From assembly GCA_902517865.1 (NCBI GenBank), contig CABYDT010000001.1, positions 91,862 to 123,861 on the forward strand: a stretch of 32,000 nt of DNA, given 5' to 3'. The stretch comes from an uncultured Pelagibacteraceae bacterium. GTDB taxonomy: Bacteria > Pseudomonadota > Alphaproteobacteria > Pelagibacterales > Pelagibacteraceae. A program made the translations under genes and the position numbers. Below, one piece after another: positions 624 to 32,000 of the stretch. Every line of letters begins with the position of its first letter. The stretch's first letter is position 1. Below the pieces are notes generated by a model, which was not told the origin of the DNA, made no database searches, and saw only the letters and a list, made by a program, of their open reading frames with translations.

Positions 624-818
624 ATTAAAATAGAAGTAAAAAATGATAATTTAGAACAAGCGCTCAGAGTTCTTAAAAAAAAGCTACAGCGTGAGGGAAC
701 ATTCCGTTTGCTCAAATTGAAAAGTCATTTCGAGAAGCCATCAGAAAAGAAAAAGAGAGAGAAAGACGAAAATATAAAAAGATTTAAAAAACTTAAAAAA
801 CTTAGATCTAGACTTTAA
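624..818 (+). CDS. rpsU: 30S ribosomal protein S21
   Basis: Hand translation gives (V)[64 protein letters not shown]. This matches the alphaproteobacterial S21 pattern (..V.VR.NN.DQALR.LKKK.QREG.FRE.K.R.HYEKPSEK..REK). A perfect AGGAGG lies at 612-617. There is no in-frame ATG/GTG/TTG after the in-frame stop at 573-575, so the start is non-canonical, most likely ATT at 624. Stop TAA is at 816-818. Confidence 0.85.
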
Positions 819-2221: not shown

Positions 2222-2524
2222 TTATTTTTTTTTCCCTTTTTTGTACATCTTTAACATCCTCATGGTGACCAGAAATCCACCAAAGATATTTACAGCTGCT
2301 AATAAAATCCCCACAATTCCAGAGTAAAAAGAAATAATCGAACTATCGGAACTAGAAACTGCAACGGCTATCAAAGCACCTACAATTATTACAGATGAAA
2401 TTGCATTTGTTACCGACATTAAAGGTGTATGCAAAGCTGGCGTAACACTCCATACAACGTAATACCCTACAAATATAGAGAGTATAAATATTGCTAACCT
2501 AAATACAAAAGGATCTATTTCCAT
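2222..2524 (-). CDS. pntAB: NAD(P) transhydrogenase subunit alpha part 2 (membrane dII segment)
   Basis: 100-aa protein with three hydrophobic helices, sandwiched with no gap between the dI and beta subunit genes. This is the three-gene pntAA/pntAB/pntB layout known from Rhodospirillum-type transhydrogenases. Confidence 0.9.
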   Translation of the reverse strand: MEIDPFVFRLAIFILSIFVGYYVVWSVTPALHTPLMSVTNAISSVIIVGALIAVAVSSSDSSIISFYSGIVGILLAAVNIFGGFLVTMRMLKMYKKGKKK

Positions 2525-17007: not shown

Positions 17008-18318
17008 ATGCCATCTCAAAAAAAAACAGTCTATGTTGCAATGAGTATAGATCTAGTACATCCAGGACACTTAAATATTATTAATAGAGCATCAAAGCTA
17101 GGTAAAGTCGTAGTTGGTTTACTGACTGATAAAGCAATTGCAAGTTTTAAAAGAGTTCCGATCATGGAATACGAAGATAGATACAAAGTTGTTTCAGCAA
17201 TTAAAAATGTTTCTAAAGTTGTAAAACAAACAACCCATGATTACAGACCTAATCTTAGAAAGATAAAACCGGAGTTTGTAGTTCATGGTGATGATTGGAA
17301 ACAAGGAGTTCAAAAAAAAATTAGAAACGATGTAATTCGTGAATTAAAAAAATGGAATGGTAAATTAATTGAATTTCCATATACAAAAGGAGTATCAACA
17401 ACAAAATTAATTGAAACAGAGAGAAAAATTGGTACGACGCCTGACATAAGAAGGAAAAGACTATTAAGATGTTTAAACTCAAGATCTTTAACAAAATTTA
17501 TTGATATTCATAGTGGATTAAGTGGATTGATAGTTGAAAAAACAAGAATTAATACCGAGGGTAAAATTGAAGAGTTTGATGGTATGTGGGCTAGCTCGTT
17601 AACAAATACTGCTGTCAAAGGTAAGCCTGATATTGAGGCAGTTGATTTAACCGAGAGGTTGCAGCTAATTCACGAGGTATTAGAAGTTACAACAAAACCA
17701 ATAGTATTTGATGCAGACACTGGAGGAAAAATCGAACATTTTATTTTTACAGTAAGAACTCTTGAAAGATTAGGGGTATCGGGTGTTATAATTGAAGATA
17801 AAACGGGTCTAAAAAAAAATTCATTGCTAGGTAAAAAGGTTTTTCAAAAACAAGAAAGTATTAAAAATTTTTCAAAGAAAATTGCAGCCGGTACGAAGGC
17901 TAAAACAACAAATGAATTTTTTGTCATTGCAAGAATAGAAAGTTTAATACTTAAAAAAAGTTTAAAAGACGCTATAACGAGAGCCAAAGCCTATATTAAT
18001 GCAGGCGCTAGTGCAATTATGATTCATAGTATAAATAAAAGTCCAAAAGAAATTTTTAAGTTTGCTAAAATTTATAATAATTTAAAAAATCGAAAACCCT
18101 TAATTGTGGTGCCAACAACCTATAATCATGTAAAGGAAAAAGAATTCGAAAAAAATGGTATAAATATGATTATCTACGCTAATCATTTATTTAGAAGTAC
18201 ATACCCAAATATGAAGACTACAGCTGAGAGTATTTTAAGGAATAAAAGATCTAAAGAGTCAGAAAAAAATTTGATGTCTATTAACGAGATTTTAAATTTA
18301 ATACCTGGAACTAAATAA
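17008..18318 (+). CDS. pepM: Bifunctional cytidylyltransferase / phosphoenolpyruvate phosphomutase (Fom1-like fusion), copy 1
   Basis: 436 aa. The N-terminal HxGH cytidylyltransferase domain has VYVAMSIDLVHPGHLNIINRA and VVHGDDW. The C-terminal ICL/PEPM domain has the PEP-mutase-diagnostic EDKxxxxxNS motif (IIEDKTGLKKNSL), plus FDADTGG and ARIES. Confidence 0.9.
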   Translation: MPSQKKTVYVAMSIDLVHPGHLNIINRASKLGKVVVGLLTDKAIASFKRVPIMEYEDRYKVVSAIKNVSKVVKQTTHDYRPNLRKIKPEFVVHGDDWKQGVQKKIRNDVIRELKKWNGKLIEFPYTKGVSTTKLIETERKIGTTPDIRRKRLLRCLNSRSLTKFIDIHSGLSGLIVEKTRINTEGKIEEFDGMWASSLTNTAVKGKPDIEAVDLTERLQLIHEVLEVTTKPIVFDADTGGKIEHFIFTVRTLERLGVSGVIIEDKTGLKKNSLLGKKVFQKQESIKNFSKKIAAGTKAKTTNEFFVIARIESLILKKSLKDAITRAKAYINAGASAIMIHSINKSPKEIFKFAKIYNNLKNRKPLIVVPTTYNHVKEKEFEKNGINMIIYANHLFRSTYPNMKTTAESILRNKRSKESEKNLMSINEILNLIPGTK

Positions 18319-18320: not shown

Positions 18321-19055
18321 CTACAAGGCTCCGCCTTTGTTTGAAACACTATCATTTTTATCATTAAAATATTCTAAATAAATATTAGAGTTTTTGCTTT
18401 CTGCATAAGTGTAATAAAGAATTCTTCTATCATTATCGGATTTATTTTTGTCAGATTTATGTGGACACAGATGGCTAAAAAATAATAAATCACCCGGTTT
18501 CAAGTTAACTTTTTCAAAATTAAGTTTTTCAGCATATTCCTTTTTTAGAAATGGAGTACCATTATTTTCTGTATTTTTTATGAGTTCATCAAATTTTAGA
18601 AAATCAGCTTTAGCAACTTCAAGTGTACCATTTTCATCATTGCAGGAGTCAAGTGCAACCAAAACATTGAGAAAAAAATTTGAGTATTTATGCCAGCCTC
18701 TATGTCTTGAACCATCTTTTTTTTCAAAATAAAAAATACCATCATAATGAGCTAAAAATCCCTCTCCGCCTTTTGGCTTTGCATTAAACTTATCTTTAAA
18801 AATAACGAATTCTTTTTTGAATAAACCCTTAATGTACCTTAAAATTTGATTATTTAGGTCATTTAAATATTCCCCTTTATTATAAAGTTTTTCTATCCTT
18901 CTTAGCTTATTGTTTTTGTCGTAATATTTTTCAACATTATTTGCGTTTTGAATTTCAATGTTTAGTTCATCAATAAAATCTTTTGAAAAAAAGTTTTCTA
19001 CTTTAAAATAACCTTTATCCTTAAAAATATTAATTAGATTTGATTTTTCTTTCAT
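18321..19055 (-). CDS. Fe(II)/2-oxoglutarate dioxygenase, phytanoyl-CoA dioxygenase (PhyH) family
   Basis: It has an N-terminal F.DKGYFKVENFF, an HxD motif (LAHYDG), a distal His (SHLCPHKS) and Arg (DRRILYY). The ORF track starts at 19109. The Met at 19055 (MKEKSNL...) reduces the overlap with the upstream gene to 26 nt and is the likelier start. Confidence 0.7.
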   Translation of the reverse strand: MKEKSNLINIFKDKGYFKVENFFSKDFIDELNIEIQNANNVEKYYDKNNKLRRIEKLYNKGEYLNDLNNQILRYIKGLFKKEFVIFKDKFNAKPKGGEGFLAHYDGIFYFEKKDGSRHRGWHKYSNFFLNVLVALDSCNDENGTLEVAKADFLKFDELIKNTENNGTPFLKKEYAEKLNFEKVNLKPGDLLFFSHLCPHKSDKNKSDNDRRILYYTYAESKNSNIYLEYFNDKNDSVSNKGGAL

Positions 19056-19908
19056 AAATATAATTATATGTTTGGGAAAACTCCTCGGTAACAGGTATGT
19101 TCTTTTCAAGTAACTTTTTAGTTAGTTTAAAACCTGAATTAACCATAATACTATTTACTCTTTTCCTTTGTTCTTTAAATTTTTCATTCACCTCAACCAA
19201 TATACTTTTTATTTTTTTATTCTTTAAAGTTTTTTTGCCACCTTCTAAAATTAAGTGCTCAATACCATCAACATCAATCTTGATATAATCAGGTATTTTC
19301 ATTATTTCTTTTTCTACTAAAAAATCAATAGTTGTGCCGAGAATTTTATAACTATTCCCGATATTAAATTTTTTTCCTTCAAAATTATATTTTTCTCCGT
19401 ATGTGTTTAATGACAAGCCTTCTTCAAATTTAAGTTCTTTCATCTCCAAAAATTTATTTTTTTTATCTGTTAATGGAAGAGTATTAATATTTATTTTGTT
19501 TACCATGTTATTTAAAAATATGTTCCTGCTTAAAACCCTTAAATTACTAGAAGATGGTTCAAATGCAAAAATTTGAATTTTATTTTTATGTACAATCGAA
19601 GCGTAAATTGAATACACACCGATGTTAGCTCCTATATCCCAAAAAATAATATTTTTTTTTGTCTTAAAATTATTTATCCATTCTATAGTATCAGGTTCTT
19701 TATCAATAAAAGTTCTTACTCTCCATTCAGTAAGTTGATTTGGCGTAAAAAATAAAACTTTTTTTCCTTTAATATAGATAGTTTTTATAGCATCTAAGTT
19801 GATAAAGTAATTAATCCAAGTAATAAAATTTCTATTGGTAAAAAAATAAAATAGTTTATTAATCGTTTTTAAAATAATGTAGATTAGATAAGAAAACGTT
19901 TTTAACAT
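19030..19908 (-). CDS. FkbM-family SAM-dependent methyltransferase
   Basis: 292 aa. FWDIGANIGVYSIYAS, FAFEPSSSN and IKIDVDGIEHLILEGG are the Methyltransf_21/FkbM signatures. Confidence 0.8.
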   Translation of the reverse strand: MLKTFSYLIYIILKTINKLFYFFTNRNFITWINYFINLDAIKTIYIKGKKVLFFTPNQLTEWRVRTFIDKEPDTIEWINNFKTKKNIIFWDIGANIGVYSIYASIVHKNKIQIFAFEPSSSNLRVLSRNIFLNNMVNKININTLPLTDKKNKFLEMKELKFEEGLSLNTYGEKYNFEGKKFNIGNSYKILGTTIDFLVEKEIMKIPDYIKIDVDGIEHLILEGGKKTLKNKKIKSILVEVNEKFKEQRKRVNSIMVNSGFKLTKKLLEKNIPVTEEFSQTYNYIYERKIKSN

Positions 19909-19927: not shown

Positions 19928-21007
19928 ATGAAAGATGCAATTAAAACAATAAAATTAAAAACAATTTTAAAACAAGACAATTTTTTTATCATTTCAGGTA
20001 AAAACTCTTTTCATAAATCGAAATTTAAAGAAAATTTTAAACTTAACGGTAAAAAAAATATCTTTTTAAAAAAAAATAATTATCCTGATGTTAATGAGTT
20101 AAAAAAAATACTATTTAAAGTAAATACTCATAAACCAAAATTTATTGTAGCAATAGGTGGTGGCAGTGTCTTGGATTATGCAAAACTTGTGTCTTGTTTA
20201 TATAAAGATAAAAATATTAATTACTCTAAATTAGTCAAATATAAATTCAAAAAAAAATTAAAAGTCATAGCAATACCAACTACTGCCGGATCAGGGGCAG
20301 AGATAACACCTAACTGCGTTCTATATAGAAATAAAAAGAAACTAAGTATCCACAACAAATATTTGAAACCAGATTTCTTTTATTTAAATTATAAATTATT
20401 AAAAGGGTTATCTAAAATTTATAGATCTTCTGCAGCTTACGATGCGCTTTCTCAAGCAATTGAGTCATTACTTGCAAAAAAATCTAGCCCCAAAAGTAGG
20501 CATCATTCAAAAAAATCTATCCAGCTTATTTTGAAAAATATTAGAAAATATCTGAGAACAGGTGATAAGAATAGTACAACCAAAATGCTCAATGCAGCAA
20601 ATCTCTCGGGAAAGGCAATCGCAATTACAGAAACAACTGCTCCGCATGCTCTTTCTTATGGTTTTACAGTATTTTATAACGTTCCCCATGGGCACGCAGT
20701 TGTTTTGACTTTGCCAATTATATTAAATTTTAATTTTGAAAAAATAATTTCAAATAAAAATAAGTATAAAAAAAGTTTACGTAAATATAACATGTTATTT
20801 AAAATTTTTAATGTTAAAAATATTTCCCAGCTTAATCGTAAATTAAATTCAATATTTCGAATTTATAGATATAATTTTAAACAAAGAAAAAAATTTTCTA
20901 TACCAAAGATACTTTTTGGAATAAATGAGAGAAGATTAAAAAATAATCCAGTAGATATTAATAAAGAAAATTTGAAGAAAATTTTAGAAAAAGTCAGAGC
21001 TAAATAG
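19928..21007 (+). CDS. Iron-containing (group III) alcohol dehydrogenase; candidate phosphonoacetaldehyde reductase (FomC/PhpC-like)
   Basis: 359 aa with IAIGGGSVLDYAKLVS, IAIPTTAGSGAEITP and the metal ligands in APHALSYGF..VPHGHAV. The function is inferred from context between pepM/ppd and the radical SAM gene. Confidence 0.7.
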   Translation: MKDAIKTIKLKTILKQDNFFIISGKNSFHKSKFKENFKLNGKKNIFLKKNNYPDVNELKKILFKVNTHKPKFIVAIGGGSVLDYAKLVSCLYKDKNINYSKLVKYKFKKKLKVIAIPTTAGSGAEITPNCVLYRNKKKLSIHNKYLKPDFFYLNYKLLKGLSKIYRSSAAYDALSQAIESLLAKKSSPKSRHHSKKSIQLILKNIRKYLRTGDKNSTTKMLNAANLSGKAIAITETTAPHALSYGFTVFYNVPHGHAVVLTLPIILNFNFEKIISNKNKYKKSLRKYNMLFKIFNVKNISQLNRKLNSIFRIYRYNFKQRKKFSIPKILFGINERRLKNNPVDINKENLKKILEKVRAK

Positions 21008-21077: not shown

Positions 21078-21584
21078 ATGAAAATAGATAATGTTTTATT
21101 AAAAAATTATTTAAAAATTACTTTTGGTGTACTATTAGTTATTATTGTTTCAAGATTTATTCCGCACCCGCCGAATTTTACAGCTTTAATTGCGCTAAGC
21201 TTCTATGTTCCAGCAATACTAGGCAAAAAATATATACCAACCTTATTGCTGAGTTTTGTTATTACAGATCTTATAATTGGTTTTCACCAAATAATATTAT
21301 TTACATGGGGTAGCGTAATTTTAATTGGTCTTGTTTCGTCATATTTTAGTTTTTCTTTAAAAAGTAGAATTTCAGGGGCTTTTCTATCAGCATGCTTATT
21401 TTTTTTGATAACAAATTTCGGTGTATGGTTGACAGGAGTATACGGATTAACAATTGATGGTTTGCTTTTGTGCTATACAATGGCAATACCATTTTTTGGA
21501 TATACTTTAGTATCTACATTGTTGTACTCAGGAATAATTGAGATAGTAAATTCGCAATATAAAAAAATAAAAAAAATAATCTAA
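21078..21584 (+). CDS. Small polytopic membrane protein, DUF6580-like putative transporter (ECF S-component-like)
   Basis: 168 aa with 5-6 hydrophobic helices. The N-terminal SRFIPHPPNFTALIALSFY resembles the R.IPHP.NF.P motif that I associate with the DUF6580 family of putative transport proteins. This is recalled from memory and not verified. Confidence 0.45.
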   Translation: MKIDNVLLKNYLKITFGVLLVIIVSRFIPHPPNFTALIALSFYVPAILGKKYIPTLLLSFVITDLIIGFHQIILFTWGSVILIGLVSSYFSFSLKSRISGAFLSACLFFLITNFGVWLTGVYGLTIDGLLLCYTMAIPFFGYTLVSTLLYSGIIEIVNSQYKKIKKII

Positions 21585-21591: not shown

Positions 21592-23112
21592 TTAAGTCTG
21601 CCTTTGAAAATGGTGTGACTCTTCAGAGTTTTGGCCGTATTTATATTTGAACCTATCTATGTCTCTTTCTTTAAGTAACAAGTTAGCTTTCATGTTTGTC
21701 TCGTTAACAAACTTTTCGAATTCCTCAGGTCCATTGAAACCGTCAACTTTAATTAGTGATGATCTTAACATCATATCGTCCATAGTTCTTCCATTCCACC
21801 AAAGTTTTTCTTTCATAACTTGTCTATAAATTGGAGTACCTGGTAAAGGATTTAATATGGCGAAACCGAAGCTATCTGCTCCACTGTTCATTGCAAATTT
21901 TATTGTATTTTGAATTTCTTCATAAGTCTCGCCTGGATAACCTAAAATCCAAAATGTATGTACTAACATTCCCGCTTTTTTAGCTCTTTCAATTGCAGGG
22001 TACACAGTATTTAAATCTAGTCTTTTATTTATAAGATGATCTAAGACTCTTTGATTTCCACTCTCACATGCTAAAGTTATTTGATAGCAACCACCGTCTG
22101 CCATTGCCTGATACATTTCTTGTTGGGTTCTTAAGTGATAATTAACTTTTGTTCCATTAGGTGTACACCAAGGAAGACCAACTTTTTCTAATTCTTTACA
22201 TAGAGCATAAAGATTTTTTTTATTAACAGTCAAAGTATCGTCTAAAAATTGTATTTCGCCGATATTAAATTGTTCAACATCTTCTTTAATTTCGGTCATT
22301 ATATTTTCTGTAGTCCTCCATCTAACACTACTGCCCCACATTTGAGGTGTTGTACAAAAAGTACATTTTTCTGGGCAACCCCTTGAGCACATAACACTTA
22401 GAACTCTATTCGATCTTGCTTTCGCTGATTGGAATGCTCCTATTTTAAAATATGACTCCATATTAACAAGATGTCTTGCTGGTCGAGGTAATAAATTTAC
22501 GTCATGCTTTTCACTTTTTTGATTTATTAAATATTTTTTGTGCCCGATTTTTTTAATAAGACCTGGCACGTTTGAATAATTATCAGTTTTATTAATTATG
22601 CAATCCACTAGTTGTGTAATTGGTTTTTCACCTTCACCTGCCATTGCAAAATCAATGCAAGGATTCTCCAGGTCCTCAATATAATCTGGTAAGTTAGATC
22701 TTGGATCATTAACTGCAAATTGATAGTCTATTGCTGCGTTAGAAATGTGATTACCTCCCAGTATAACTTTAATATTGCTATTAACTTCCTTTGCAAGCTT
22801 TGCGATATTGTGTGCTGAATTTAAAAAATTGGAGAATAGGACTGATACTGCGAGGACATCTGGTGAAAAGTCTGATATTACTTTTTTGATCTGTTCATCA
22901 GATTGACCAATCATCACTTTCTTCTTTTTTTTGTCGACTATGATTCTGTGGTCCCAACCTTCTAAAGCAGTATCATGTATTTTGACAATATGACCGTGCT
23001 GTTCAAGCATGCCGGCAATTAACATAACTCCCAAGGAAGGTTGAATTCTATTAACACCATCGTCCATACCTTTGAGGTTTGGCGTCATTAAAAGTACTCT
23101 GGCTTTTTTCAT
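21592..23112 (-). CDS. Cobalamin-binding-domain radical SAM enzyme (class B; putative methyltransferase, Fom3/PhpK-like by context)
   Basis: 506 aa. The N-terminal B12-binding-like Rossmann domain begins RVLLMTPNL...PSLGVMLIAGMLEQHGHIVKIHD. The radical SAM cluster motif is CPEKCTFC (CxxxCxxC). Confidence 0.8.
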   Translation of the reverse strand: MKKARVLLMTPNLKGMDDGVNRIQPSLGVMLIAGMLEQHGHIVKIHDTALEGWDHRIIVDKKKKKVMIGQSDEQIKKVISDFSPDVLAVSVLFSNFLNSAHNIAKLAKEVNSNIKVILGGNHISNAAIDYQFAVNDPRSNLPDYIEDLENPCIDFAMAGEGEKPITQLVDCIINKTDNYSNVPGLIKKIGHKKYLINQKSEKHDVNLLPRPARHLVNMESYFKIGAFQSAKARSNRVLSVMCSRGCPEKCTFCTTPQMWGSSVRWRTTENIMTEIKEDVEQFNIGEIQFLDDTLTVNKKNLYALCKELEKVGLPWCTPNGTKVNYHLRTQQEMYQAMADGGCYQITLACESGNQRVLDHLINKRLDLNTVYPAIERAKKAGMLVHTFWILGYPGETYEEIQNTIKFAMNSGADSFGFAILNPLPGTPIYRQVMKEKLWWNGRTMDDMMLRSSLIKVDGFNGPEEFEKFVNETNMKANLLLKERDIDRFKYKYGQNSEESHHFQRQT

Positions 23113-23168: not shown

Positions 23169-23843
23169 TTACTTCTCAATATACATAGGCTTTTTAAGGT
23201 TTTTAAAAGATTTAGCTTTCTTTTTAACCTTTTTAAGAAATGTATTAATAACTCTAGTTTCGCCTTTGTAAAAAATACCGCTTGTACCTACCCCTTGATA
23301 ATTATCTAAAAGAATTAAGCCCCCTTTAATTATCCTTGGATAAAAATGATTTAAAACACATTCAGTTGATTCGACAAAATCTATATCGACGTTTAGTAAA
23401 ATAATTTTTTCTTTTGGTCTTTTTTTTAGAAATTCAGGCACTGTTTTGAGCACGTTTCCCTTAATTAATTGAAAATTTTTAATATTTTTTTTCTTAAATA
23501 ATGTTTCGAGTTTTTTTTTTGAAAAAGAATTACCAGCAGTTTTCATCCAATGTTTTCTTTGTTTTTTCTCATTTTTATACTTGGTATCTGGGTACGGCTC
23601 TTCAAAAACATCAAAGCCAATGAGTTTTGAATTCTCCTTATTAAATAATTTACGCATCATTGCAAATCTTGAAAAAGATGTGCCCTTAAATACACCCGCT
23701 TCTACTATTGATCCACTTAAGTGCGATACTTTTTTAAAAGCTTCATAATGTACCAAAAATTTCGATAATCTATCTTTTGTCATTAAAAGATTAAAATCAG
23801 TCTCTGAGTTGTACATTTTTTGGATATTAAGATAATTAACCAT
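23169..23843 (-). CDS. TylF/macrocin-O-methyltransferase-family SAM-dependent methyltransferase
   Basis: 224 aa. GSIVEAGVFKGTSFSRFA and LLNVDIDFVESTECVLNHFYPRIIKGGLILLDNY fit the TylF-like class I methyltransferase pattern, including metal-binding Asp residues. Confidence 0.7.
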   Translation of the reverse strand: MVNYLNIQKMYNSETDFNLLMTKDRLSKFLVHYEAFKKVSHLSGSIVEAGVFKGTSFSRFAMMRKLFNKENSKLIGFDVFEEPYPDTKYKNEKKQRKHWMKTAGNSFSKKKLETLFKKKNIKNFQLIKGNVLKTVPEFLKKRPKEKIILLNVDIDFVESTECVLNHFYPRIIKGGLILLDNYQGVGTSGIFYKGETRVINTFLKKVKKKAKSFKNLKKPMYIEK

Positions 23844-24598
23844 TAGAAAATTCGTTTAGCTTTAAGATAATCTTGCTTGTTATCAATTTCAATCCATTTA
23901 TTACTTTTAGTATAGTAATAATCTAAATTATTTTTACTCATAAATATATTTAAGGGATTTTCCCAGTTTTTTTTTAGATTTTTCTTCTTACTTAAAAATT
24001 TGTTAAGGATACAAATTAATTTTTTTCTATGACCGTTATCTAATCGTATAATACCGACAGCTTCACCTAAAAATTTACTACTTTTCAAAACATCCTGTTT
24101 AGCAAATTTTTTATCTATCATATATTTAATTTTTTTGCTTTTATTAATAAATACTTTGGCACACTCTTGATCTGAAATATCTCCTTTTCCAACCAATGCC
24201 AGATTAAATTTTTTTGACTTTAAAAAATGTTTTAGTATTTTAAAATCTATCATAATATCACCATCTAAAAATATGCATCTTGAATTAATTTTTTTTAAGC
24301 CTAAAAGCAGTGAGTAAGAATTTCCTTTAGAAATATAATTTTTATTTTTTGTGATTTTTATATTTATGTTATTTTTATAAGATTTTGTGATTTTTTTAAA
24401 TAAAAAATCTTTATATCCCAATACAAGAGTAAAATTTTTTGCACCAACTTTCATAAATTTATCAATATTGCTTTCCAAAATTGACTTATTTGAAATTTGT
24501 AAAAGACTTTTTGGTTTTTTTGTATAGTTAGATATTCTCGATCCCTTCCCGGCAGCGAGAATTATTATATGCGTTGACTTGCAGAGTCTTTTATCCAT
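23843..24598 (-). CDS. LicC/PntC-like nucleotidyltransferase (candidate phosphonate or phospho-alcohol cytidylyltransferase)
   Basis: 251 aa. IIILAAGKGSRISNYTKKPKSLLQISNKSILE is the NTP_transferase G-rich loop. The size and layout resemble LicC. Confidence 0.7.
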   Translation of the reverse strand: MDKRLCKSTHIIILAAGKGSRISNYTKKPKSLLQISNKSILESNIDKFMKVGAKNFTLVLGYKDFLFKKITKSYKNNINIKITKNKNYISKGNSYSLLLGLKKINSRCIFLDGDIMIDFKILKHFLKSKKFNLALVGKGDISDQECAKVFINKSKKIKYMIDKKFAKQDVLKSSKFLGEAVGIIRLDNGHRKKLICILNKFLSKKKNLKKNWENPLNIFMSKNNLDYYYTKSNKWIEIDNKQDYLKAKRIF

Positions 24599-25494
24599 GC
24601 TCTAATCATTGTTCTTTTTAATGGAGCTAATGTTTCTTTATTTTTAAAAATCTCTTCACTATTATAAAAATCAGAGAAAGATGTTCTTCCATGCAATACT
24701 TGATTATCAATTGTTAGAAGTATATCTCCTGGACTTAAATTAAATCTAATTTGATTTTCAGGGGCCTCCAATAAAGAGTCCAAAACATCTAGTGAGTATA
24801 ATTGTAATGGGCTTAAAGGTTTTTTAACTTTTTCATGAGCAGACACCATATAGGGTCTTAAATATCTAAACGTTGGTTCTTTTTTTTTATTAAATTCAAT
24901 AATTGGGGATTTATAAAAACTTTCTGATATACCTCTCTTTTCCCAATAAAAATTTTTCCTCAATATACTAAGTGCAAGTTTAAATTTTTTCTTAAGAATT
25001 TTGTATATCTCTTTACCATTAACCAAGATAGTTTCTCCTCCTATTTCGGCTCTAGAAACGCAACTTAAAATTAAATAATCCCATTTGATTTTAAGATTAA
25101 CATTATCTGTATGTATACTACCGCCTTCTCTGGTTTGATGATATCTGCCACCTGAGTTAATTGATAAATTTCTATCTCGATCAAAGACATAAACCAATTT
25201 ATCCCCCTTTTCATTTTGGACAATTTTTTTTCCAAGAATTAACGATACAGCTTTTGTAATATCTATAATTGTATCCGGCGCTAAATATTTATTTTTATAG
25301 TTAAATTGCAAGACAACACCTAACTTGCCATGTTTGAGTTTGTTTTTGCATGATTCGACATAATTCTTAAAACTCTTATTAGAGAGAATTGTATTTACGT
25401 TATCTTTATCTTTATTCTTATCTAGGCTTTTAAGTAATTTCAAAATATTAGTATTTGGACGTGAAAAATCTATATAGCGAATATTTTTTTTCAT
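24565..25494 (-). CDS. Fe(II)/2-oxoglutarate dioxygenase, TauD/TfdA (gamma-butyrobetaine hydroxylase-like) family
   Basis: 309 aa. It has an HxD in GGSIHTDNV and a distal His-Arg in DNQVLHGRTSF. The overall length and spacing are TauD-like. Confidence 0.7.
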   Translation of the reverse strand: MKKNIRYIDFSRPNTNILKLLKSLDKNKDKDNVNTILSNKSFKNYVESCKNKLKHGKLGVVLQFNYKNKYLAPDTIIDITKAVSLILGKKIVQNEKGDKLVYVFDRDRNLSINSGGRYHQTREGGSIHTDNVNLKIKWDYLILSCVSRAEIGGETILVNGKEIYKILKKKFKLALSILRKNFYWEKRGISESFYKSPIIEFNKKKEPTFRYLRPYMVSAHEKVKKPLSPLQLYSLDVLDSLLEAPENQIRFNLSPGDILLTIDNQVLHGRTSFSDFYNSEEIFKNKETLAPLKRTMIRAWIKDSASQRI

Positions 25495-25531
25495 ACGCGC
25501 TTTTTAGTATAAGTTAATAAATTAATCAATT

Positions 25532-26347
25532 TCATAATTTGTCCCTTACAGAATTAACAAAACCTTTAAATAAACAAATATATAAACCACCTAAAAAAAT
25601 TAAAGAGGTTTTAAAGCAAATTAGAAAGAATAATACATCACTAACATAAATTTTATTGTGAATAATTTCAAATACTAAAACTAATAATATGATATCAACC
25701 CAAGAAGATCTATCATTTAATATATTATCAAATAAAAATTTAAATATTCTTAAAATTGGAGAAAATTTCATTATTTTACTTCTATTTTTTTTTCGGTTTA
25801 TTTTTTTTCCACTTTTATAATGTTCATACATAGTGATTAAGTATGTAAAATTTTTTAAATCAAAAAATTTAAAAGATAAGTAAATTAAAATTGAGTATAA
25901 ATAGACAATATCTGACGTATGATTAAATAAGTAAATAGATAAAGCTATTACAAATAAATTGTAATTTACTAACCCCGTCCATATATCCAAAACATGACCA
26001 AGATTAGATTGTTTTTTATTTACTGAAGCTAGTAGACCGTCAGTCCAGTCTAATAAACCGATAGAAAAAAAAATTATAATACCGATAAATTTTAATTTAT
26101 CTTCGCCAAAACTTAAGAAAATCGTACCAAAAAAAACAAGGATAGAATTTGTAATTGAAACTGAATTAGGAGTAATAGGGGTTTTTTGAAATAAAAAAAC
26201 CAATATAGAGCTTAATTCAATAAATAACCTAGACTTTAAATACGAATAAGGAGATCTAAAAAAACTTTGTAGATCAATATCGTAATCTTTCGAGTGTCTA
26301 CTTAAAGATCTTTTATAATTAATAGCTCTAATTTTTGCAAAATTCAT
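25532..26347 (-). CDS. CDP-alcohol phosphatidyltransferase-family membrane protein (variant motif)
   Basis: 271 aa and polytopic. DWTDGLLASVNKKQSNLGHVLDIWTG fits DG(x2)A(R/S)(x8)G(x3)D(x3), with the final Asp replaced by Gly. Confidence 0.6.
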   Translation of the reverse strand: MNFAKIRAINYKRSLSRHSKDYDIDLQSFFRSPYSYLKSRLFIELSSILVFLFQKTPITPNSVSITNSILVFFGTIFLSFGEDKLKFIGIIIFFSIGLLDWTDGLLASVNKKQSNLGHVLDIWTGLVNYNLFVIALSIYLFNHTSDIVYLYSILIYLSFKFFDLKNFTYLITMYEHYKSGKKINRKKNRSKIMKFSPILRIFKFLFDNILNDRSSWVDIILLVLVFEIIHNKIYVSDVLFFLICFKTSLIFLGGLYICLFKGFVNSVRDKL

Positions 26348-26349
26348 AC

Positions 26350-27651
26350 TTAAGGAATTAAATTGATTATTTCTTTTATTGGTGTCATATCTTTTTTAGC
26401 GTTCTTGGCTCTTGAATTTTTTAAAATACTTTTTGCCACCTTATTCATCGCTGCGTAAGAAGATCTCAATAATTGATTAGCATATATTACAATATCAAAA
26501 CCATTTTGTTTTAATATTTTTTCCGTGACATGATCATAAGTAGAAGGTACACAAACAAGTGGTATAGAAGAATTAAACTTTTTAAATCTTTTAGCAAATT
26601 CAAATACTTTTTTGGGATTTTTTTCTTTACTATGTATCATTATTCCATCCACGTTAGCTTTTACATATTTTTTTGCCCTTCTAATCGCATCATTTATACC
26701 TTTATTAAGTATAAAGCTTTCAATTCTTGCTATGACCATAAAATCATTAGTTATTTGATTAGTTTTTATAAATTTAATTTTGTTTGCAAAACGTACAGGA
26801 TCTTCTTGTTTTTGATTAGAAGTATCCTCAAAAAGCGAATTTCTTTTCACGCCTGTTTTGTCTTCCATAATGACTGCGGATATACCAAGTTTTTCAATTG
26901 AATTAATTTTCATTTTTAGATGTTCGAGCTTACCACCGGTATCAATATCCATAATAAGAGGCTTGCTGGTCACATCAAAAATTTTATCAATATTATTTAA
27001 TCTTAAAGAAAGATCTAAAGACTCATTATCCGGTCTTCCAAAAAGAGTAGAGTCAGTCAATGAACTGGACCAAAATCCATCAAAGTATTTTTCTTTTTTA
27101 TTTTGAATTATAGATATCTTTTCAACTAACAAAGCACTTAACGGTGAGTGTGCTTCAATAAAAGTTAGGAATTTTTTTAAACTTAGTAACCTTTTAAGTG
27201 ATGACCTTCTTCTATCTGGAGTAACAGAGAATCTCAAATCTTTACCTATTTCATTATGAATATTAAAGGAATGAGCATTCTTTGCATGTGGGACTTCAAC
27301 GAGTTTTCCTCCAATGGATTTTAAGCATTTAATTACTTTCTTTCTTAAATCTTTTTCAATTCCAAATTTCCAATCATCTCCATGTACGACTATATCTGGT
27401 CTTATCTTTTTTATATTTATTGTGTCATCCCACTCTTTTTGAGGAATAACTTTTTTTACACCCTTAATATTTTTTATGATAGTTTTTCTCTGTTCAAATG
27501 TTAGCAATGGCATTCTTTTTTTGGCTAAGATTGCCTCTTCGGTCAATAAACCTATTGTTAAGTTACCTAAAGAACTAGCTTTATTAATTACGTTTATATG
27601 ACCATGGTGAAGATTGTCCGCCGAAAGAGACAAATATACATTTTTTTTCAT
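26350..27651 (-). CDS. pepM: Bifunctional cytidylyltransferase / phosphoenolpyruvate phosphomutase (Fom1-like fusion), copy 2
   Basis: 433 aa. The N-terminal domain has VYLSLSADNLHHGHINVINKA and VVHGDDW. The C-terminal PEP mutase domain has IMEDKTGVKRNSL (EDKxxxxxNS), MDIDTGG and ARIES. It is collinear with copy 1 but clearly diverged. Confidence 0.9.
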   Translation of the reverse strand: MKKNVYLSLSADNLHHGHINVINKASSLGNLTIGLLTEEAILAKKRMPLLTFEQRKTIIKNIKGVKKVIPQKEWDDTINIKKIRPDIVVHGDDWKFGIEKDLRKKVIKCLKSIGGKLVEVPHAKNAHSFNIHNEIGKDLRFSVTPDRRRSSLKRLLSLKKFLTFIEAHSPLSALLVEKISIIQNKKEKYFDGFWSSSLTDSTLFGRPDNESLDLSLRLNNIDKIFDVTSKPLIMDIDTGGKLEHLKMKINSIEKLGISAVIMEDKTGVKRNSLFEDTSNQKQEDPVRFANKIKFIKTNQITNDFMVIARIESFILNKGINDAIRRAKKYVKANVDGIMIHSKEKNPKKVFEFAKRFKKFNSSIPLVCVPSTYDHVTEKILKQNGFDIVIYANQLLRSSYAAMNKVAKSILKNSRAKNAKKDMTPIKEIINLIP

Positions 27652-28631
27652 ATTAAATTTTGTAAAATTTCTCCTTTCGATTTATTTCCTAAATACACTT
27701 CTCCAAGATGACTTACTACACTTCCATCACTTTTAATTCTAGGAGTGTACAATAAAGTTTTTTTGTTTTTTTGTTTTAATTTTTTTTTTATATAAGTGCA
27801 TATTGTAGGTTGGTGCTTTATATCGTATTTTAAAAATCTTTTATATTTCAAAATAAATTTTTTCTTATTAATTTGAACTGACTTTAAGAAAAAATTATAT
27901 TTTTTTAAAACTAAATCCATAGATTGAAGGATGTGATATGGACCGGTCATCTTTTTATTAAGGTGACTGTAGTAGTTTAAATAAAATGATTTTACTCTAT
28001 TTTTCGGATTTGACTTAGAGGCAACAAAAGATGCTCCGGTTAGTCCAAATAAACCTTTACAACTACTGAAAGATACAACATCAGCAAGTCCATGATTTTT
28101 CTCTAAACCTATAGAGGCTGTGGCATCTAAAGCTAATTTTGCATTTAACTTTGTTGATAATCTTTTTAGATCAAATATTGGTAGCTTAAGTCCTTTGCTT
28201 GTTTCAACATAACAACACCATATCCAATCATATTTTTTTTTAATGTTTTTAACATTTTTCCAGCTAACGCTATCAATTTTTGTAATATATTTATAGTTTT
28301 TCATTGTATTAGTTGCTATGTCAAAAAGTCTATTTGAATAATAGCCAGTAGATATAATTAAAACTCTTCCTGATATAAAGTTTGAACAAAGGATTTCGCA
28401 AGCCAAGCTTCCTGATCCTTGGAAAGAAATAATTTTTTTTTGCTGCGAGATTTTTTTTAAATTCTTTTCAACTCTTTTTGATAAACTGGCATAGTGTTTG
28501 TCACCTCTTCCGAAACAAGGTTGTAAATTACTAATATTTTCACTTAAAAGTGCAGCTGGACCAGGAGTAAAAATATTCAATTTTTTATTTTTCTTTATAA
28601 TGAATTTTGAAAACAAATTTTTATTATTCAT
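27648..28631 (-). CDS. Class V PLP aminotransferase; candidate 2-aminoethylphosphonate:pyruvate transaminase (PhnW-like, biosynthetic direction)
   Basis: 327 aa. FTPGPAALLSEN, FQGSGSLACE, VETSKGL, LDATASIG and SSCKGLFGLTGASFV (PLP Lys) follow the class V pattern. An ATGA overlap links it to pepM copy 2. Confidence 0.6.
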   Translation of the reverse strand: MNNKNLFSKFIIKKNKKLNIFTPGPAALLSENISNLQPCFGRGDKHYASLSKRVEKNLKKISQQKKIISFQGSGSLACEILCSNFISGRVLIISTGYYSNRLFDIATNTMKNYKYITKIDSVSWKNVKNIKKKYDWIWCCYVETSKGLKLPIFDLKRLSTKLNAKLALDATASIGLEKNHGLADVVSFSSCKGLFGLTGASFVASKSNPKNRVKSFYLNYYSHLNKKMTGPYHILQSMDLVLKKYNFFLKSVQINKKKFILKYKRFLKYDIKHQPTICTYIKKKLKQKNKKTLLYTPRIKSDGSVVSHLGEVYLGNKSKGEILQNLI

Positions 28632-28637: not shown

Positions 28638-29813
28638 TTACGTATCAACTTTTTTATAACTATACCCAACATTGGCTCCACTTGGTAAATGAATCAAACT
28701 TGCAGAAGCTTTTGATGTATTTTTTAATATCATTTTTGGACATTTTTTATAAGGTTTAAGTGTGTGAATTGGTTGCCATGGAGGTCTAACGCCTACACCT
28801 TTTTTATTTAAATATTTTATTATTTTTTTTTGAGATCGTTTATTTTTGTTATTTAAAACTATTGTTTGTAGCCAATAATTACTAAACGTATTAATGGGTT
28901 CTTTCATAATTTGATAATCGTTTGTATCACTTAAAACTTTAACATACTTTTTATATAACCATCTCTTCTTTTTTATAAAGTTTTTTAGCTTTTGAATTTG
29001 GGCCAAACCAAGAGAAGCATTAAGACTTGGCATTTTAAAATTATAGCCTATTTCATTATGAAATATTCTATAATTTTTCACAATTTTTGATGTTGAACAA
29101 ATATGGTTTATTTTAGAGTATAATTTTTTTGAATTTGTAATTATTGCACCACCTCCTCCTGTAGTTATAATTTTGTTTCCATTAAAACTAATTACTCCCA
29201 TTGATCCAAAATTACCTACGTGTCTACCTTGATATTTGCTACCAAATGACTCTGCACAATCTTCAACGATTTTAAGTTGATATTTTTTTGCTAGAGATAA
29301 ACATTGCCTCATGTTACTCGGATGGCCAAACAAGTGAACAGGAATAATTGCTTTTATTACTTTATTTGTATTTTTATTATAGCATTTACCATTCTTAAAA
29401 TTAACTATAGAGGATAAGTAATGATCCAACCTATCATAATCTATATCCATCAGATCATTGTTTAAATCGACAAAATGCGGAGTTGCATTACAATACGCTA
29501 TAGGATTTACTGAACCTATAAATGTAAGCGATGGAACAAGGACTTCATCTCCTTCTTTTACTCCTAGAGTTTTCAAACAAATAAAAATTCCAGTTGTTGC
29601 GTTAATAGTTGCAACTGAATACTTTGACCTAGTAGTTAATTTAATTTTTTTCTCAAATTTTTTTGTATTTTTCCCTTTGGTAGATACATAAGTAGATTTT
29701 AAGCATTTTATAATTTCGAGTTTTTCATGTTTTGAAAAGCAAGGCTCGTGTAGTTCTTCTTTCTCATTTCTAAAAAACATTTTTAATTTACTGTAAATTT
29801 TTTTTTCTATCAT
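28638..29813 (-). CDS. DegT/DnrJ/EryC1/StrS-family PLP-dependent sugar aminotransferase
   Basis: 391 aa. LVPSLTFIGSVNPI, PVHLFGHP, IVEDCAESFGSKY and ISFNGNKIITTGGGGAI are family motifs, and the PLP lysine is retained. It overlaps rfbG by 4 nt. Confidence 0.8.
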   Translation of the reverse strand: MIEKKIYSKLKMFFRNEKEELHEPCFSKHEKLEIIKCLKSTYVSTKGKNTKKFEKKIKLTTRSKYSVATINATTGIFICLKTLGVKEGDEVLVPSLTFIGSVNPIAYCNATPHFVDLNNDLMDIDYDRLDHYLSSIVNFKNGKCYNKNTNKVIKAIIPVHLFGHPSNMRQCLSLAKKYQLKIVEDCAESFGSKYQGRHVGNFGSMGVISFNGNKIITTGGGGAIITNSKKLYSKINHICSTSKIVKNYRIFHNEIGYNFKMPSLNASLGLAQIQKLKNFIKKKRWLYKKYVKVLSDTNDYQIMKEPINTFSNYWLQTIVLNNKNKRSQKKIIKYLNKKGVGVRPPWQPIHTLKPYKKCPKMILKNTSKASASLIHLPSGANVGYSYKKVDT

Positions 29814-30883
29814 AAGTTTAGTAATTTTATATATTGATGAATTTGTTTAATGGTAAATAAAGTAATTTTATTTGAATTATTTTGATTTTGAAAATAATAC
29901 TTATACCATTCTAGCGTTAATTTTAAAGTTTTTGAAAAATTTAGTCTAAGTTTCCATTTTAAATATTTTTCTGATTTTTTACAATTTAATACAAGTAAAT
30001 TAGTTTCATTTTTTAAATTGCTTGTTTTTAAAGCAACCCACTTAAAATTTGGCCAGGTTTTTTTTATGTTTTTTAGTATCTCATTAACTTTTATAATCTT
30101 GTTTTTTTTTGGTCCAAAATTAAAACTCTCTCCATTTATTTTCTTATTTTTTTTTAAACAAATCGCTAAGTTTAAATATCCAAATACAATTTCAATCACA
30201 TGCTGCCATGGCCTTGATGAGTTGATATTTCTAATCTTTACTGTTTTGTTTGCTGCAGCCATGGTAATACAGTCAGGTATAATTCTTCCTTTATTCCAAT
30301 CCCCCCCACCAATAACATTACCTGCCCTTGCTGTTGCAATAAGGTGCTTTGAGTGTTTCAAATATGATTTAAAATAAGATTTAAACGAAATTTCAGCTGC
30401 AGCCTTAGATGCACTATATGGATCGATACCTCCCAATCTATCAGTTTCTGTATATCCACTTATTTTTTCATTATTTTCATAACATTTATCGCTAGTAACT
30501 AAGACACAAACGCATTTTTTTTTAAGTTTCAAAACAGTCTCAATAATATTTATAAAACCGATTAAATTTGATTGCCAAGTTAAATAAGGTTTTGCATAAG
30601 AAATATTTATTAATGGCTGTGCCGCAAGATGAAATATATAATCAGGTTTGAAACTAATAATTTTTTTTTCTAAAACTTTTTTATTTGTAATATCTAAAAA
30701 ATTATTATTTACTTTATTTTTAATTCCCAGAATTTCAAATAAAGAAGGTTTGGTATTAGGTTTTAATGAAATACCCATAATTTTTGCACCTAATACGTGG
30801 AGTACCATAGTTAACCAGGCGCCCTTAAAGCCTGTATGGCCTGTGATAATTACTTTTTTATTTTTAAAGTGCTTTGAGTTCAT
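29810..30883 (-). CDS. rfbG: CDP-glucose 4,6-dehydratase
   Basis: 357 aa. KKVIITGHTGFKGAWL, KP.PSLFE, FHLAAQPL...SY..P, TSDKCYEN, DPYS.SK...E, RAGNVIGGGDW...R.IPD and RPWQHV.E are collinear with Salmonella RfbG as recalled. Confidence 0.85.
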   Translation of the reverse strand: MNSKHFKNKKVIITGHTGFKGAWLTMVLHVLGAKIMGISLKPNTKPSLFEILGIKNKVNNNFLDITNKKVLEKKIISFKPDYIFHLAAQPLINISYAKPYLTWQSNLIGFINIIETVLKLKKKCVCVLVTSDKCYENNEKISGYTETDRLGGIDPYSASKAAAEISFKSYFKSYLKHSKHLIATARAGNVIGGGDWNKGRIIPDCITMAAANKTVKIRNINSSRPWQHVIEIVFGYLNLAICLKKNKKINGESFNFGPKKNKIIKVNEILKNIKKTWPNFKWVALKTSNLKNETNLLVLNCKKSEKYLKWKLRLNFSKTLKLTLEWYKYYFQNQNNSNKITLFTIKQIHQYIKLLNL

Positions 30884-32000
30884 TTTTGTTTATATTTATA
30901 TAATTAAGTTGTTTTTTCTCATTTAATTTATAAATTTTTTTTGTCATTTTAGCTAATATTTTACTATGTGTAATAAGTATAATTGTTAAGTCTGGATAAA
31001 GATTAATAATATTTTTCAAAATTTTTTTCGAGGTTGTCTCATCAATAGCATTAAAAGACTCATCCAAAATTAAAATTTTTGGATCAAAATATAGAGCTCT
31101 AGCAATCCCAATTCTTTGCTTTTGACCCCCAGAAATTTTTGATCCACTCTCCCCAAGAGATTTCCCTTTTAATTTTTTTGAATTAGAAAAAGAGCTTAAG
31201 CAACAAATCTTTTTTAATTTTGTTATTTTTTCATAATCAATATTCTTATTTTCAACTTCTAAAGAAATATTTTTTTCGATTGATGTATCAAAGATATAAA
31301 TAAATTGCGGGCAATAACTAATAATATTTGTCAGAAGTTTATCTTTTGTATCTACACCATCTAAATAGATTTTACCTTGATCAGGTTTTAAAAATCCAAG
31401 AATTAAATCTATTAGAGTGCTTTTACCAGAACCGCTAGCACCTATTACAGAAATTATATCTTTCTTTTTAATTTTTAAATTAAGATTATCAAATATTTTG
31501 TTTTTCCTTTTGTTATTCGAATGTGTAAATTTTAAATTAGAAATTTTTATTTCTTTGTCAAAATTATTAATTAAATTTTTATTATTTAATTTACTAATTT
31601 TTAATCTATCGAAAAAATTAATAACCTCATCGATGGATGGCATAGAATATTTTCTAGAATTATAAGAATGTACAATTTTGTTAATTGATGGTAAAATTCT
31701 AATTATTGTTGCAGTGATCACAGATAATTTTATAATTATGTCTGTTGAGGTATTGCTCTTCAAAAATATAAATATTACCAATGCAACTGTAAATATTGCT
31801 ATCACTTCAAAAAACAGTTTTGGTATTTTTTGAATGACGTAATATTTTTTAAAAAATTGCGATAATTTTTGAGTATTAAAACTATAACTGTCTTCAAATA
31901 TATTTTCTTTATTATATATTTTGATTTCTTTAATTCCGCTCGAAGTTTCTAAAATTTTTTTAGTTCTTTCCAATTCTAGTTTTTTTCTTAACTCTCCTAA
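30864..32000 (-). CDS. ABC exporter, fused permease/ATPase (MsbA/lipid-glycan exporter-like); the N-terminus lies beyond the window
   Basis: It has Walker A GASGSGKST, the signature ISGGQKQRIGIARAL and Walker B ILILDESFNAIDE, preceded by TM segments. The reading frame stays open upstream of the track's TTG at 31973 to the window edge. Confidence 0.85.
   Translation of the reverse strand, partial: LGELRKKLELERTKKILETSSGIKEIKIYNKENIFEDSYSFNTQKLSQFFKKYYVIQKIPKLFFEVIAIFTVALVIFIFLKSNTSTDIIIKLSVITATIIRILPSINKIVHSYNSRKYSMPSIDEVINFFDRLKISKLNNKNLINNFDKEIKISNLKFTHSNNKRKNKIFDNLNLKIKKKDIISVIGASGSGKSTLIDLILGFLKPDQGKIYLDGVDTKDKLLTNIISYCPQFIYIFDTSIEKNISLEVENKNIDYEKITKLKKICCLSSFSNSKKLKGKSLGESGSKISGGQKQRIGIARALYFDPKILILDESFNAIDETTSKKILKNIINLYPDLTIILITHSKILAKMTKKIYKLNEKKQLNYININKNELKAL

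Follow-up and report, generated by a model that had tools for sequence, protein, structure and literature searches.

A six-gene cassette in a SAR11 surface-glycan island is predicted to build and transfer a head group derived from 2-aminoethylphosphonate

The DNA analyzed is a stretch of 32,000 nucleotides (nt) from an uncultured Pelagibacteraceae bacterium (contig CABYDT010000001.1, positions 91,862 to 123,861), called here the window, and the system in question is a module of six minus-strand genes at 23169 to 28631 (Table 1). For this module the original prediction, made from the letters alone, had proposed a head group derived from 2-aminoethylphosphonate (AEP) that is placed on a lipid or lipid-linked acceptor. 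On balance, the gene content and its conservation suggest that the module makes and tailors a head group derived from AEP, activates it with CMP and passes it on at the membrane, and that it forms the AEP branch of a composite SAR11 cluster predicted to decorate the cell surface with hydroxyethylphosphonate (HEP)- and AEP-type groups. The idea is already published, the same logic having been set out by Li & Horsman 2022 (PMC8942020), and the locus appears to be a SAR11 variant of a catalogued, unproven cluster type. The variant is distinguished by a shared phosphonopyruvate decarboxylase (Ppd), the glycan-operon setting, added TylF-type methyltransferase and B12-binding radical SAM (B12-rSAM) genes, and an altered active site in its membrane protein of the CDP-alcohol phosphotransferase (CAPT) type.

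All six open reading frames (ORFs) were present with exactly the predicted boundaries, as were the HHGH, IMEDKTGVKRNSL and DG..AS........G...D...G motifs. From the aminotransferase to the TylF gene they are spaced by -4, 2, 37, -34 and -1 nt, so that the overlap of 4 nt between the aminotransferase gene and that for the cytidylyltransferase (CyTase)-phosphoenolpyruvate (PEP) mutase fusion, PepM2, is real, and the TauD-like and LicC-like genes overlap by 34 nt. The window sequence was recovered on a TARA scaffold (L001). The order of the module is kept in the related loci L002/L022, with amino acid identities of 85 to 91% for PepM, 81% for the CAPT-like protein, 91% for TauD, 90% for the nucleotidyltransferase and 97% for TylF, and in L021 at 46 to 87% identity. 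Because the same gene order recurs in these loci, the six genes are a conserved cassette rather than a chance run of ORFs.

The strongest evidence for an AEP-type route was the genomic linkage of the class-V aminotransferase, whose family is abundant in marine metagenomes (1,363 matches of about 325 amino acids each). A set of 80 metagenome loci carrying the family was scored with the window proteins, and linkage was counted in the 39 loci with at least 3 kb of upstream sequence. PepM was found in 36 and Ppd in 32 of these, with CyT-PepM, Ppd, aminotransferase and stand-alone CyTase as the commonest order; L019 holds PepM, aminotransferase, TauD, nucleotidyltransferase, B12-rSAM and Ppd together. 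Owing to this family-wide linkage, the predicted formation of AEP from phosphonoacetaldehyde by the aminotransferase is well supported by context, which upholds the AEP-type route of the original prediction. The closest sequences in the PDB were the AEP transaminase (AEPT) domain of 6pd1 (Tde1415), followed by PhnW (7e7g and 1m32), and PhnW 1m32 was also the top Foldseek match of the AlphaFold2 (AF2) model (pLDDT 85). The pyridoxal phosphate-binding Lys192 (FSSCKG) and Asp169 are invariant across the family, in agreement with a class-V enzyme of fold type I.

PepM2 is a Fom1-like fusion that passed the TIGR02320 equivalog cutoff and carries the motif EDKxxxxxNS as EDKTGVKRNS, a motif defined as specific for PEP mutase (Ppm) (PMC6697681). 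Its CyTase domain keeps the HHGH (HxGH) signature and matches Fom1 (5x3d, E 8e-41). The second cytidylyltransferase signature is degenerate, reading HAKNAHSF (residues ~119 to 131) in PepM2 and HAK[ND]A[HK]SF in the clade of the window, L021 and L022; the form [YH]TK[GND][IV]SS (as in YTKGISS), equivalent to RTxGISTT, is kept in about 40 other PepM fusions, in the PepM1 of the window and in Fom1. With this signature lost, the PepM2 CyTase may have no activity or have taken on another role. A second candidate for activation is the LicC-like enzyme, with the PntC domain of 6pd1 (44.6 bits, E 1.3e-10) and LicC 1jyk (38.6 bits, E 8.8e-9) as its closest PDB relatives. Its Gly-rich LAAGxGxR loop reads ILAAGKGSR, and an Asp stands at the position of Tde-PntC Glu104, as in LicC. 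The predicted CMP activation of a phosphonate by this LicC/PntC-type enzyme is thus plausible, as is the Fom1-like domain as a contributor.

For the tailoring steps, the best PDB match of the TauD-like protein was the phosphonate hydroxylase FrbJ (5eqn, E 2.6e-13), and the iron triad H-T-D ... H-G-R is kept in all seven orthologues that cover those positions. The TauD-like and LicC-like genes were always adjacent (L019, L021, L022, L032 and L098), and the conserved pairing suggests that the two enzymes act in succession, one on the product of the other. The pair also lies at 8599-10373 of L101, a phosphonate cluster with aepX and aepY on the Rhizobium leguminosarum plasmid pRLTp73_2, and its conservation there points to a portable two-gene tailoring unit well beyond SAR11. 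The best PDB match of the TylF-type protein was CalS11, a TDP-rhamnose 3'-O-methyltransferase. TylF adjoins the CAPT-like gene in L058, L064 and L075, without the TauD/nucleotidyltransferase pair in the stretch covered, and also in the Riflebacteria locus L008. Action of the methyltransferase on the hydroxyl made by TauD was therefore weakened as a candidate step, TylF accompanying the CAPT-like gene where TauD is absent. Of the predicted hydroxylated or methylated head group, the hydroxylation retains its candidate enzyme, and the methyltransferase tracks the transferase instead of the hydroxylase.

The membrane protein belongs to the CAPT superfamily by fold and by profile. Its AF2 model (pLDDT 91.7) gave significant Foldseek matches to CAPT structures exclusively (AF2299, PIPS, DIPPS and PgsA), and the family profile matches AF2299 (E 2e-11), PIPS, CEPT1/CHPT1, DIPPS and PgsA. 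An ordinary phospholipid synthase of core metabolism, the identity against which the original prediction had set its own, was rejected on NCBIfam scores of 19 to 30 bits against cutoffs of 109 to 240 (PgsA 19.4/109, PIPS 21.4/170, ClsA 20.8/240, archaetidylinositol phosphate synthase 29.5/180). The motif of the window protein, D100xxD103GxxA107-S108-x8-G117xxxD121xxxG125, reads DWTDGLLAS-x8-GHVLDIWTG, and the family signature over 40 aligned members and 27 from the loci is DxxDGxxA[R/S/T/V/H]-x8-GxxxD-xxx-[G/A/S/N]. In the C-terminal half, D218 and R213 are invariant or nearly so. A full HMMER scan yielded a family of 400 representatives at E ≤ 1e-3, of which 137 clusters reached E < 1e-10; a word-indexed search retrieved 3 close relatives from 5.8 billion proteins, and a genome scan with a narrower alignment of the membrane family (A3) returned three loci. 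No match to the CAPT-like protein was found by tblastn among the PLSDB plasmids. A Burkholderia plasmid match for PepM was rejected as an unrelated FrbC-type cluster.

The genomic context of the CAPT-like gene was read from two sets of loci, one seeded with the CAPT-like protein (L006 to L009 and L012 to L015 among them) and the 80 selected by the aminotransferase. In the former, the gene stands beside CyT-PepM, Ppd and the iron-type alcohol dehydrogenase (Fe-ADH) gene in L007, a Pelagibacteraceae single-cell genome, and next to Ppd in L009; in the Riflebacteria L006 and L008 it occurs with B12-rSAM genes, a class-V aminotransferase and glycosyltransferases. In L012 to L015 it is accompanied by a methyltransferase and a faint choline-kinase-like gene, without PepM, and such loci look like a phosphate-ester counterpart of the same logic. 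The family occurs in 16 of the 80 aminotransferase-selected loci, where it adjoins Ppd, CyTase, LicD or TylF. A methyltransferase gene almost always neighbours it, even without TauD, and is of the TylF type in the SAR11 loci and L008 and of the Methyltransf_25 type in L006, L007 and L012. The simplest reading of this context is a candidate transferase that handles small CMP-activated head groups, phosphono- or phospho-, and is paired with a methyltransferase in loci for surface polymers.

A conserved three-gene unit was also observed in surface-glycan loci of SAR11, Riflebacteria and others, in which the CAPT-like gene precedes a gene for a methyltransferase of ~350 amino acids and one for an unannotated protein of ~250 amino acids with a faint choline-kinase match in L012. 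Outside the clade of the window it is found in L012 (10001-13410), L006 (9980-12587) and L007 (9926-12562).

Taken as a pathway, PepM2 would convert PEP to phosphonopyruvate, the single Ppd of the island would drive this reaction onward to phosphonoacetaldehyde, and the short aminotransferase, translationally coupled to PepM2, would form AEP. The FrbJ-like TauD enzyme would hydroxylate AEP, most likely to 1-hydroxy-AEP, and the LicC/PntC-type enzyme would produce the CMP conjugate, a step to which the PepM2 CyTase may contribute despite its degenerate second signature. Where present, the B12-rSAM enzyme would C-methylate the CMP conjugate, by analogy with Fom3. At the cytoplasmic face, the CAPT-like enzyme would release CMP and join the phosphonyl head group to an acceptor in the membrane through a hydroxyl of that acceptor; the TylF-type enzyme would methylate the transferred group or the acceptor, and the ABC exporter would carry the product outward. 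As acceptor, a lipid-linked glycan made with the CDP-6-deoxyhexose genes of the operon is slightly favoured over bulk lipid; the lipid acceptor of the original prediction is no better supported than a glycan.

The Ppd on which this pathway would depend lies with module 1 of the island, and no second copy was found in the window by tblastn, the six genes themselves holding none. The cassette is therefore not self-sufficient, and both phosphonate branches need the one Ppd, which shares 52 to 56% identity with its counterparts in L007 and L009. Module 1 contains CyT-PepM1, Ppd, Fe-ADH and LicD, a content that fits the proposal of two outputs from one island, and its PepM-Ppd-reductase-LicD logic (HEP-type) is identical to that of the annotated Fulvitalea pFA2. 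PepM1 and PepM2 share 46% identity and are therefore old paralogues. In L021 the TylF end of the cassette adjoins the same Fe-ADH gene as in the window, without the B12-rSAM/DUF6580 pair; the two modules travel together, given this retained junction, and they are branches of one composite cluster, given that the sole Ppd of the window sits with the first.

Several observations weigh against the proposed pathway. The Ppd lies about 7 kb beyond the TylF end of the cassette, past genes on the opposite strand; in related loci, its position varies from upstream of PepM to downstream or several kb away, so the distance in the window is unremarkable. In the Pfam searches proposed with the original prediction, five of the six ORFs scored over threshold and the aminotransferase fell under its Aminotran_5 cutoff. 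The best NCBIfam match of the aminotransferase, PhnW-AepZ, reached 67.2 bits, far under the cutoff of 360.8, and the second AEP-transaminase model (of the TIGR03301/TIGR02326 pair) was missed as well (44.2 versus 400.8 bits); alanine-glyoxylate (AGXT-type) transaminases scored almost as well as PhnW against the aminotransferase model. The same short aminotransferase, paired with a stand-alone CyTase, occupies a fixed slot of the core genome, in the order PntAB, TAL_FSA, aminotransferase, CyTase and BipA, in nine loci, L020 (4468-9369), L025, L028, L038, L051, L055, L072, L074 and L077. Neither PepM nor Ppd is in view in these nine, among which L055 gives 7.5 kb of context, and the pair bears on the specificity of the aminotransferase. 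For the LicC-like enzyme, the PDB scores do not separate PntC from LicC.

For the membrane protein, the TM scores of the model to solved CAPTs are modest (0.36 to 0.48). The fourth Asp of the CAPT signature is generally taken as the catalytic base. The complete signature, D1xxD2GxxAR...GxxxD3xxxD4, is not matched by the window protein, which has S in place of R and G in place of D4; none of the 40 members of the A1 alignment and none of the 27 from the loci has the fourth Asp, and Ser stands for the Arg throughout the clade of the window. The motif, called near-canonical in the original prediction, is thus further from the canonical form than that wording allowed, and with the fourth Asp and the clade's Arg missing the transferase could be inactive or use a different donor. 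PepM is also missing within 10 kb in about half of the contexts seeded with the CAPT-like protein (L006, L008 and L012 to L015).

A transfer of head groups from CMP to lipid is the chemistry of eukaryotic ethanolamine and choline phosphotransferases. A true phosphonolipid, with the CAPT-like enzyme moving AEP or hydroxy-AEP from CMP onto diacylglycerol or a ceramide-like lipid, would follow the proposal made for the Burkholderiales 'group 1 phosphonolipid' clusters (PMC8942020). Membership in the CAPT superfamily, with a family profile that also matches CEPT1 and CHPT1, is in line with this explanation, as is a gene content that mirrors the CDP-OH core predicted to make a 1-hydroxy-AEP lipid (PMC8942020). 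However, the module lies within a glycan operon that also encodes a CDP-glucose dehydratase, a DegT aminotransferase and an ABC exporter, with glycosyltransferases and LicD nearby, it has no counterpart of the second 'phospholipid' gene in the Burkholderiales core, and the phosphonates of Prochlorococcus sit on membrane-anchored glycoproteins, not on lipids (PMC8931226). We consider a phosphonolipid product possible but less likely. Less probable still is that the CAPT-like protein moves some other CMP- or CDP-activated group, such as a sugar or alcohol phosphate with a donor from the neighbouring CDP-sugar genes, or is dead, and that LicD installs both HEP and AEP. The altered signature described above would suit such a role, as would the family members with CDP-sugar genes and no PepM in view (L012/L013), the proposal of LicD as the transferase of the Pnt pathway (PMC6697681) and the co-occurrence of LicD with the CAPT-like gene in several loci. 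Yet the three metal-binding Asp, the Gly residues and Asp218/Arg213 show strict conservation, an argument for selection on an active enzyme, and the CAPT-like gene fits tightly between its neighbours, 2 nt from PepM2 and 37 nt from TauD, and lies directly beside Ppd or CyTase in other loci.

A route independent of Ppd, in which the aminotransferase turns phosphonopyruvate into phosphonoalanine before hydroxylation, activation and transfer, was largely rejected on the statistics of Ppd linkage and is very improbable. In its favour, Ppd is missing from the module and is not seen in the close variants L002/L022 and L021 either, the aminotransferase gene overlaps that of PepM by 4 nt, and a transaminase branch from phosphonopyruvate is known (PMC8942020). 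The known enzymes forming phosphonoalanine, however, are PalB-type Aminotran_1_2 proteins and not of class V (PMC8942020), and the aminotransferase family is linked to Ppd in the large majority of the informative loci, usually directly downstream of it. A Ppd is moreover present in the same island, and the Fe-ADH junction in L021 suggests that a module bearing Ppd follows there as well. The AEP-based pathway is retained as the preferred reading.

In comparison with known systems, the cassette is closest to the Burkholderiales_CDP-OH group (PMC8942020), the equivalent of the 'group 1 phosphonolipid' clusters of Yu et al. 2013. That group has a seven-gene core of a Ppm-cytidylyltransferase fusion, Ppd, AEPT, a 2-oxoglutarate (2OG) oxygenase, a second PntC and two phospholipid genes, with a predicted and uncharacterised 1-hydroxy-AEP lipid as product. 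By this published description of gene content, the Ppm fusion, AEPT, 2OG oxygenase, second PntC and PF01066 transferase have counterparts in the window, all contiguous at 23843-28631, and the prediction for both is a membrane acceptor bearing a 1-hydroxy-AEP head group. Unlike in that group, the Ppd of the window lies outside the module and is common to the HEP-type branch, TylF and B12-rSAM genes are added, and the module is embedded in a CDP-sugar/ABC-exporter glycan operon of a SAR11 genome; no second phospholipid-biosynthesis gene was found in the gene run with Pfam and NCBIfam models. A literature search found no later characterisation of a cluster of this type.

PntC and CMP-AEP were established, and LicD-like transferases proposed, by Rice et al. 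2019 (PMC6697681) for the Pnt pathway of Treponema denticola, Atopobium rimae and Olsenella uli, which runs through Ppm, Ppd, AEPT and PntC to a LicD-like transferase. The window shares with it the predicted logic of AEP being made, activated as CMP-AEP by a LicC-type enzyme and sent to the cell surface, and the closest solved relatives of its aminotransferase and nucleotidyltransferase are the two domains of one protein, Tde1415 (6pd1). Unlike the Pnt pathway, the candidate transferase is a polytopic CAPT-like enzyme and not LicD, hydroxylase and methyltransferase genes are added, and the PntC-like specificity is putative. With fosfomycin biosynthesis, the window has in common an N-terminal CyTase fused to PEP mutase, as in Fom1, and a B12-radical-SAM methylase gene in the same cluster, for which Fom3 is a precedent of tailoring at the CMP-phosphonate stage. 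Fom1, however, activates HEP, and CMP is later removed to give the free antibiotic, whereas the CMP conjugate of the window would presumably be a transfer donor; the second CyTase signature is degenerate in comparison with Fom1, and in comparison with Fom3 the rSAM enzyme is closest to the uncharacterised Sden_1168 family. The canonical CAPTs (AF2299, IPCT-DIPPS, PIPS, PgsA and CEPT1/CHPT1) resemble the membrane protein in fold, in D1xxD2GxxA...GxxxD3 and in overall build, being polytopic helical membrane proteins whose N-terminus forms an amphipathic helix. They differ from the CAPT-like family in the fourth Asp, which is replaced there, in the Arg that is Ser in the clade of the window, and in lacking its additional invariant Asp218/Arg213 of the C-terminal half.

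In surface-ocean SAR11, pepM was reported in 18% of cells, with clusters adjoining glycan-assembly genes (Acker et al., PMC8931226); by estimate, the greater part of the surface ocean's potential for phosphonate synthesis lies in SAR11, whose product has not been chemically identified (PMC8931226). The transfer of CMP-activated phosphonates to surface molecules is an open step of the Pnt pathway (PMC6697681). As a tentative extension, possible rather than probable, the CAPT-like family without the fourth Asp may be the missing phosphonyl transferase of marine phosphonate producers. It would use CMP-phosphonate donors (CDP-alcohols in the PepM-less relatives) and another catalytic base, possibly Asp218, and together with its dedicated methyltransferase would give a hydroxylated and/or methylated AEP ester on SAR11 surface glycans or lipids; high-molecular-weight phosphonate in the ocean would then have a major source with new chemistry. 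If the AEP pathway as a whole is true, it would name molecules feeding AEP-type phosphonates into marine dissolved organic phosphorus and extend the chemistry of the CAPT superfamily. If the module merely repeats a known AEP decoration, it is an ordinary member of an already catalogued cluster class. The locus and about 100 related contigs provide a testable parts list, composed of an AEP-type transaminase family, a hydroxylase paired with a cytidylyltransferase, a B12-rSAM enzyme that is optional, and a recurrent altered-site membrane transferase with its methyltransferase.

Table 1. Features of the cassette, of its gene run and of module 1, with window positions and supporting matches.
Feature	Position	Strand	Support
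Class-V aminotransferase, 327 amino acids	27648-28631	-	PF00266 18.1 bits, under cutoff of 21.5
CyTase-PEP mutase fusion (PepM2)	26350-27651	-	PF13714 161.5 bits; PF01467 52 bits vs cutoff 21; TIGR02320 354 vs 319.55 bits
CDP-OH_P_transf polytopic membrane protein, candidate CMP-phosphonate transferase	25532-26347	-	PF01066 34.5 bits vs cutoff 22
TauD-family Fe(II)/2-oxoglutarate dioxygenase, candidate phosphonate hydroxylase	24565-25494	-	PF02668 68.3 bits vs cutoff 27
LicC/PntC-type (LicC/MobA-type) nucleotidyltransferase	23843-24598	-	PF12804 34.7 bits vs cutoff 27
TylF-type SAM methyltransferase	23169-23843	-	PF05711 53 bits vs cutoff 23
ABC exporter, C-terminal part, first gene of run	30864-31973	-	ABC_membrane and ABC_tran domains in L001
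CDP-glucose 4,6-dehydratase, same run	29810-30883	-	TIGR02622 415 bits vs 278
DegT/LegC-type sugar aminotransferase, same run	28638-29813	-	TIGR04181 438 bits vs 420
B12-binding radical SAM enzyme, last gene of run	21592-23112	-	PF04055 76 bits; PF02310 53 bits
DUF6580 membrane protein, tail-to-tail with B12-rSAM gene, possible accessory	21078-21584	+	PF20221 102.9 bits
Phosphonopyruvate decarboxylase (Ppd)	15142-16254	-	TPP_enzyme_N and TPP_enzyme_C domains
LicD, module 1	16251-16934	-	Pfam
CyT-PepM1, module 1	17008-18318	+	Pfam
PhyH dioxygenase, module 1	18321-19109	-	Pfam
FkbM methyltransferase, module 1	19030-19908	-	Pfam
Fe-ADH, module 1	19928-21007	+	Pfam

The cassette forms the middle of a run of ten genes, from the ABC exporter, CDP-glucose 4,6-dehydratase and DegT/LegC aminotransferase through the six module genes to the B12-rSAM gene, all joined by overlaps or by gaps of at most 56 nt. 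Upstream, the ABC exporter gene overlaps that of the dehydratase by 20 nt, and the spacing is -4 nt from dehydratase to DegT and 6 nt from DegT to the class-V aminotransferase; the B12-rSAM gene, the tenth of the run, begins on the same strand 56 nt past the methyltransferase gene. The original prediction had omitted the CDP-sugar, ABC-exporter and B12-rSAM genes of the run as well as DUF6580. The ABC exporter ORF starts at TTG in the window, and the complete gene in L001 encodes 576 amino acids. An ABC exporter is also found upstream of the module in L002, L021 and L022, and a CDP-glucose dehydratase adjoins such modules in L002, L021, L022, L007 and L012. No terminator-like sites were found in the gene run by a promoter/terminator scan, in which promoter-like sites were as numerous as expected from shuffles and thus uninformative. 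The antisense ORFs 26530-26901 and 26858-27106 within the PepM gene, with low-complexity translations, were rejected as spurious.

Identity to L002 (7715-9999) was 81 to 97% from PepM to TylF and fell to 62% for the aminotransferase, 55% for the CDP-glucose dehydratase and 43% for the ABC exporter. This fall implies a mosaic cassette with a probable recombination breakpoint at the aminotransferase/PepM junction. In comparison with L021 (3242-6335), the CAPT-like gene was down to 46% and its neighbours were at 58 to 87%.

The island is AT-rich, with a GC content of 22 to 27% compared to 29 to 36% in the flanking pntAB region (815-3607), which it borders, and contains glycosyltransferases, a Wzy/O-antigen-like membrane protein, epimerases and LicD. 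The PntAA protein of the window falls in a 90%-identity cluster with a protein annotated 'Candidatus Pelagibacter sp.', which, with the membrane-protein relative in a Pelagibacteraceae single-cell genome, points to a SAR11-type alphaproteobacterium as host. In module 1, genes for a PhyH dioxygenase and an FkbM methyltransferase lie between PepM1 and the Fe-ADH gene, and on their account hydroxylation and methylation are possible in the HEP branch as well. Elsewhere in SAR11 (loci L023, L027 and L088), a stand-alone CyTase gene is located directly upstream of the Fe-ADH gene.

SAR11 is usually described as lacking B12-dependent enzymes. The best NCBIfam match of the B12-rSAM protein was the Sden_1168 family (245.6 bits, under the cutoff of 575), and homologues with 58 to 78% identity stand beside the aminotransferase or CyTase gene in L019 and in 11 of the 80 related loci. 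L021 and L002 lack the gene at the corresponding position; the enzyme is likely an accessory tailoring methylase, and the B12-rSAM/DUF6580 pair appears as an accessory insertion. The DUF6580 protein may be a corrinoid-uptake component serving the B12 enzyme in SAR11. The two genes occur together again in L068 (1425-3411), and in L019 the DUF6580 gene (2253-2741) lies beside genes for a DUF1289 protein and a TonB-dependent receptor, with the B12-rSAM gene at 10628-12139.

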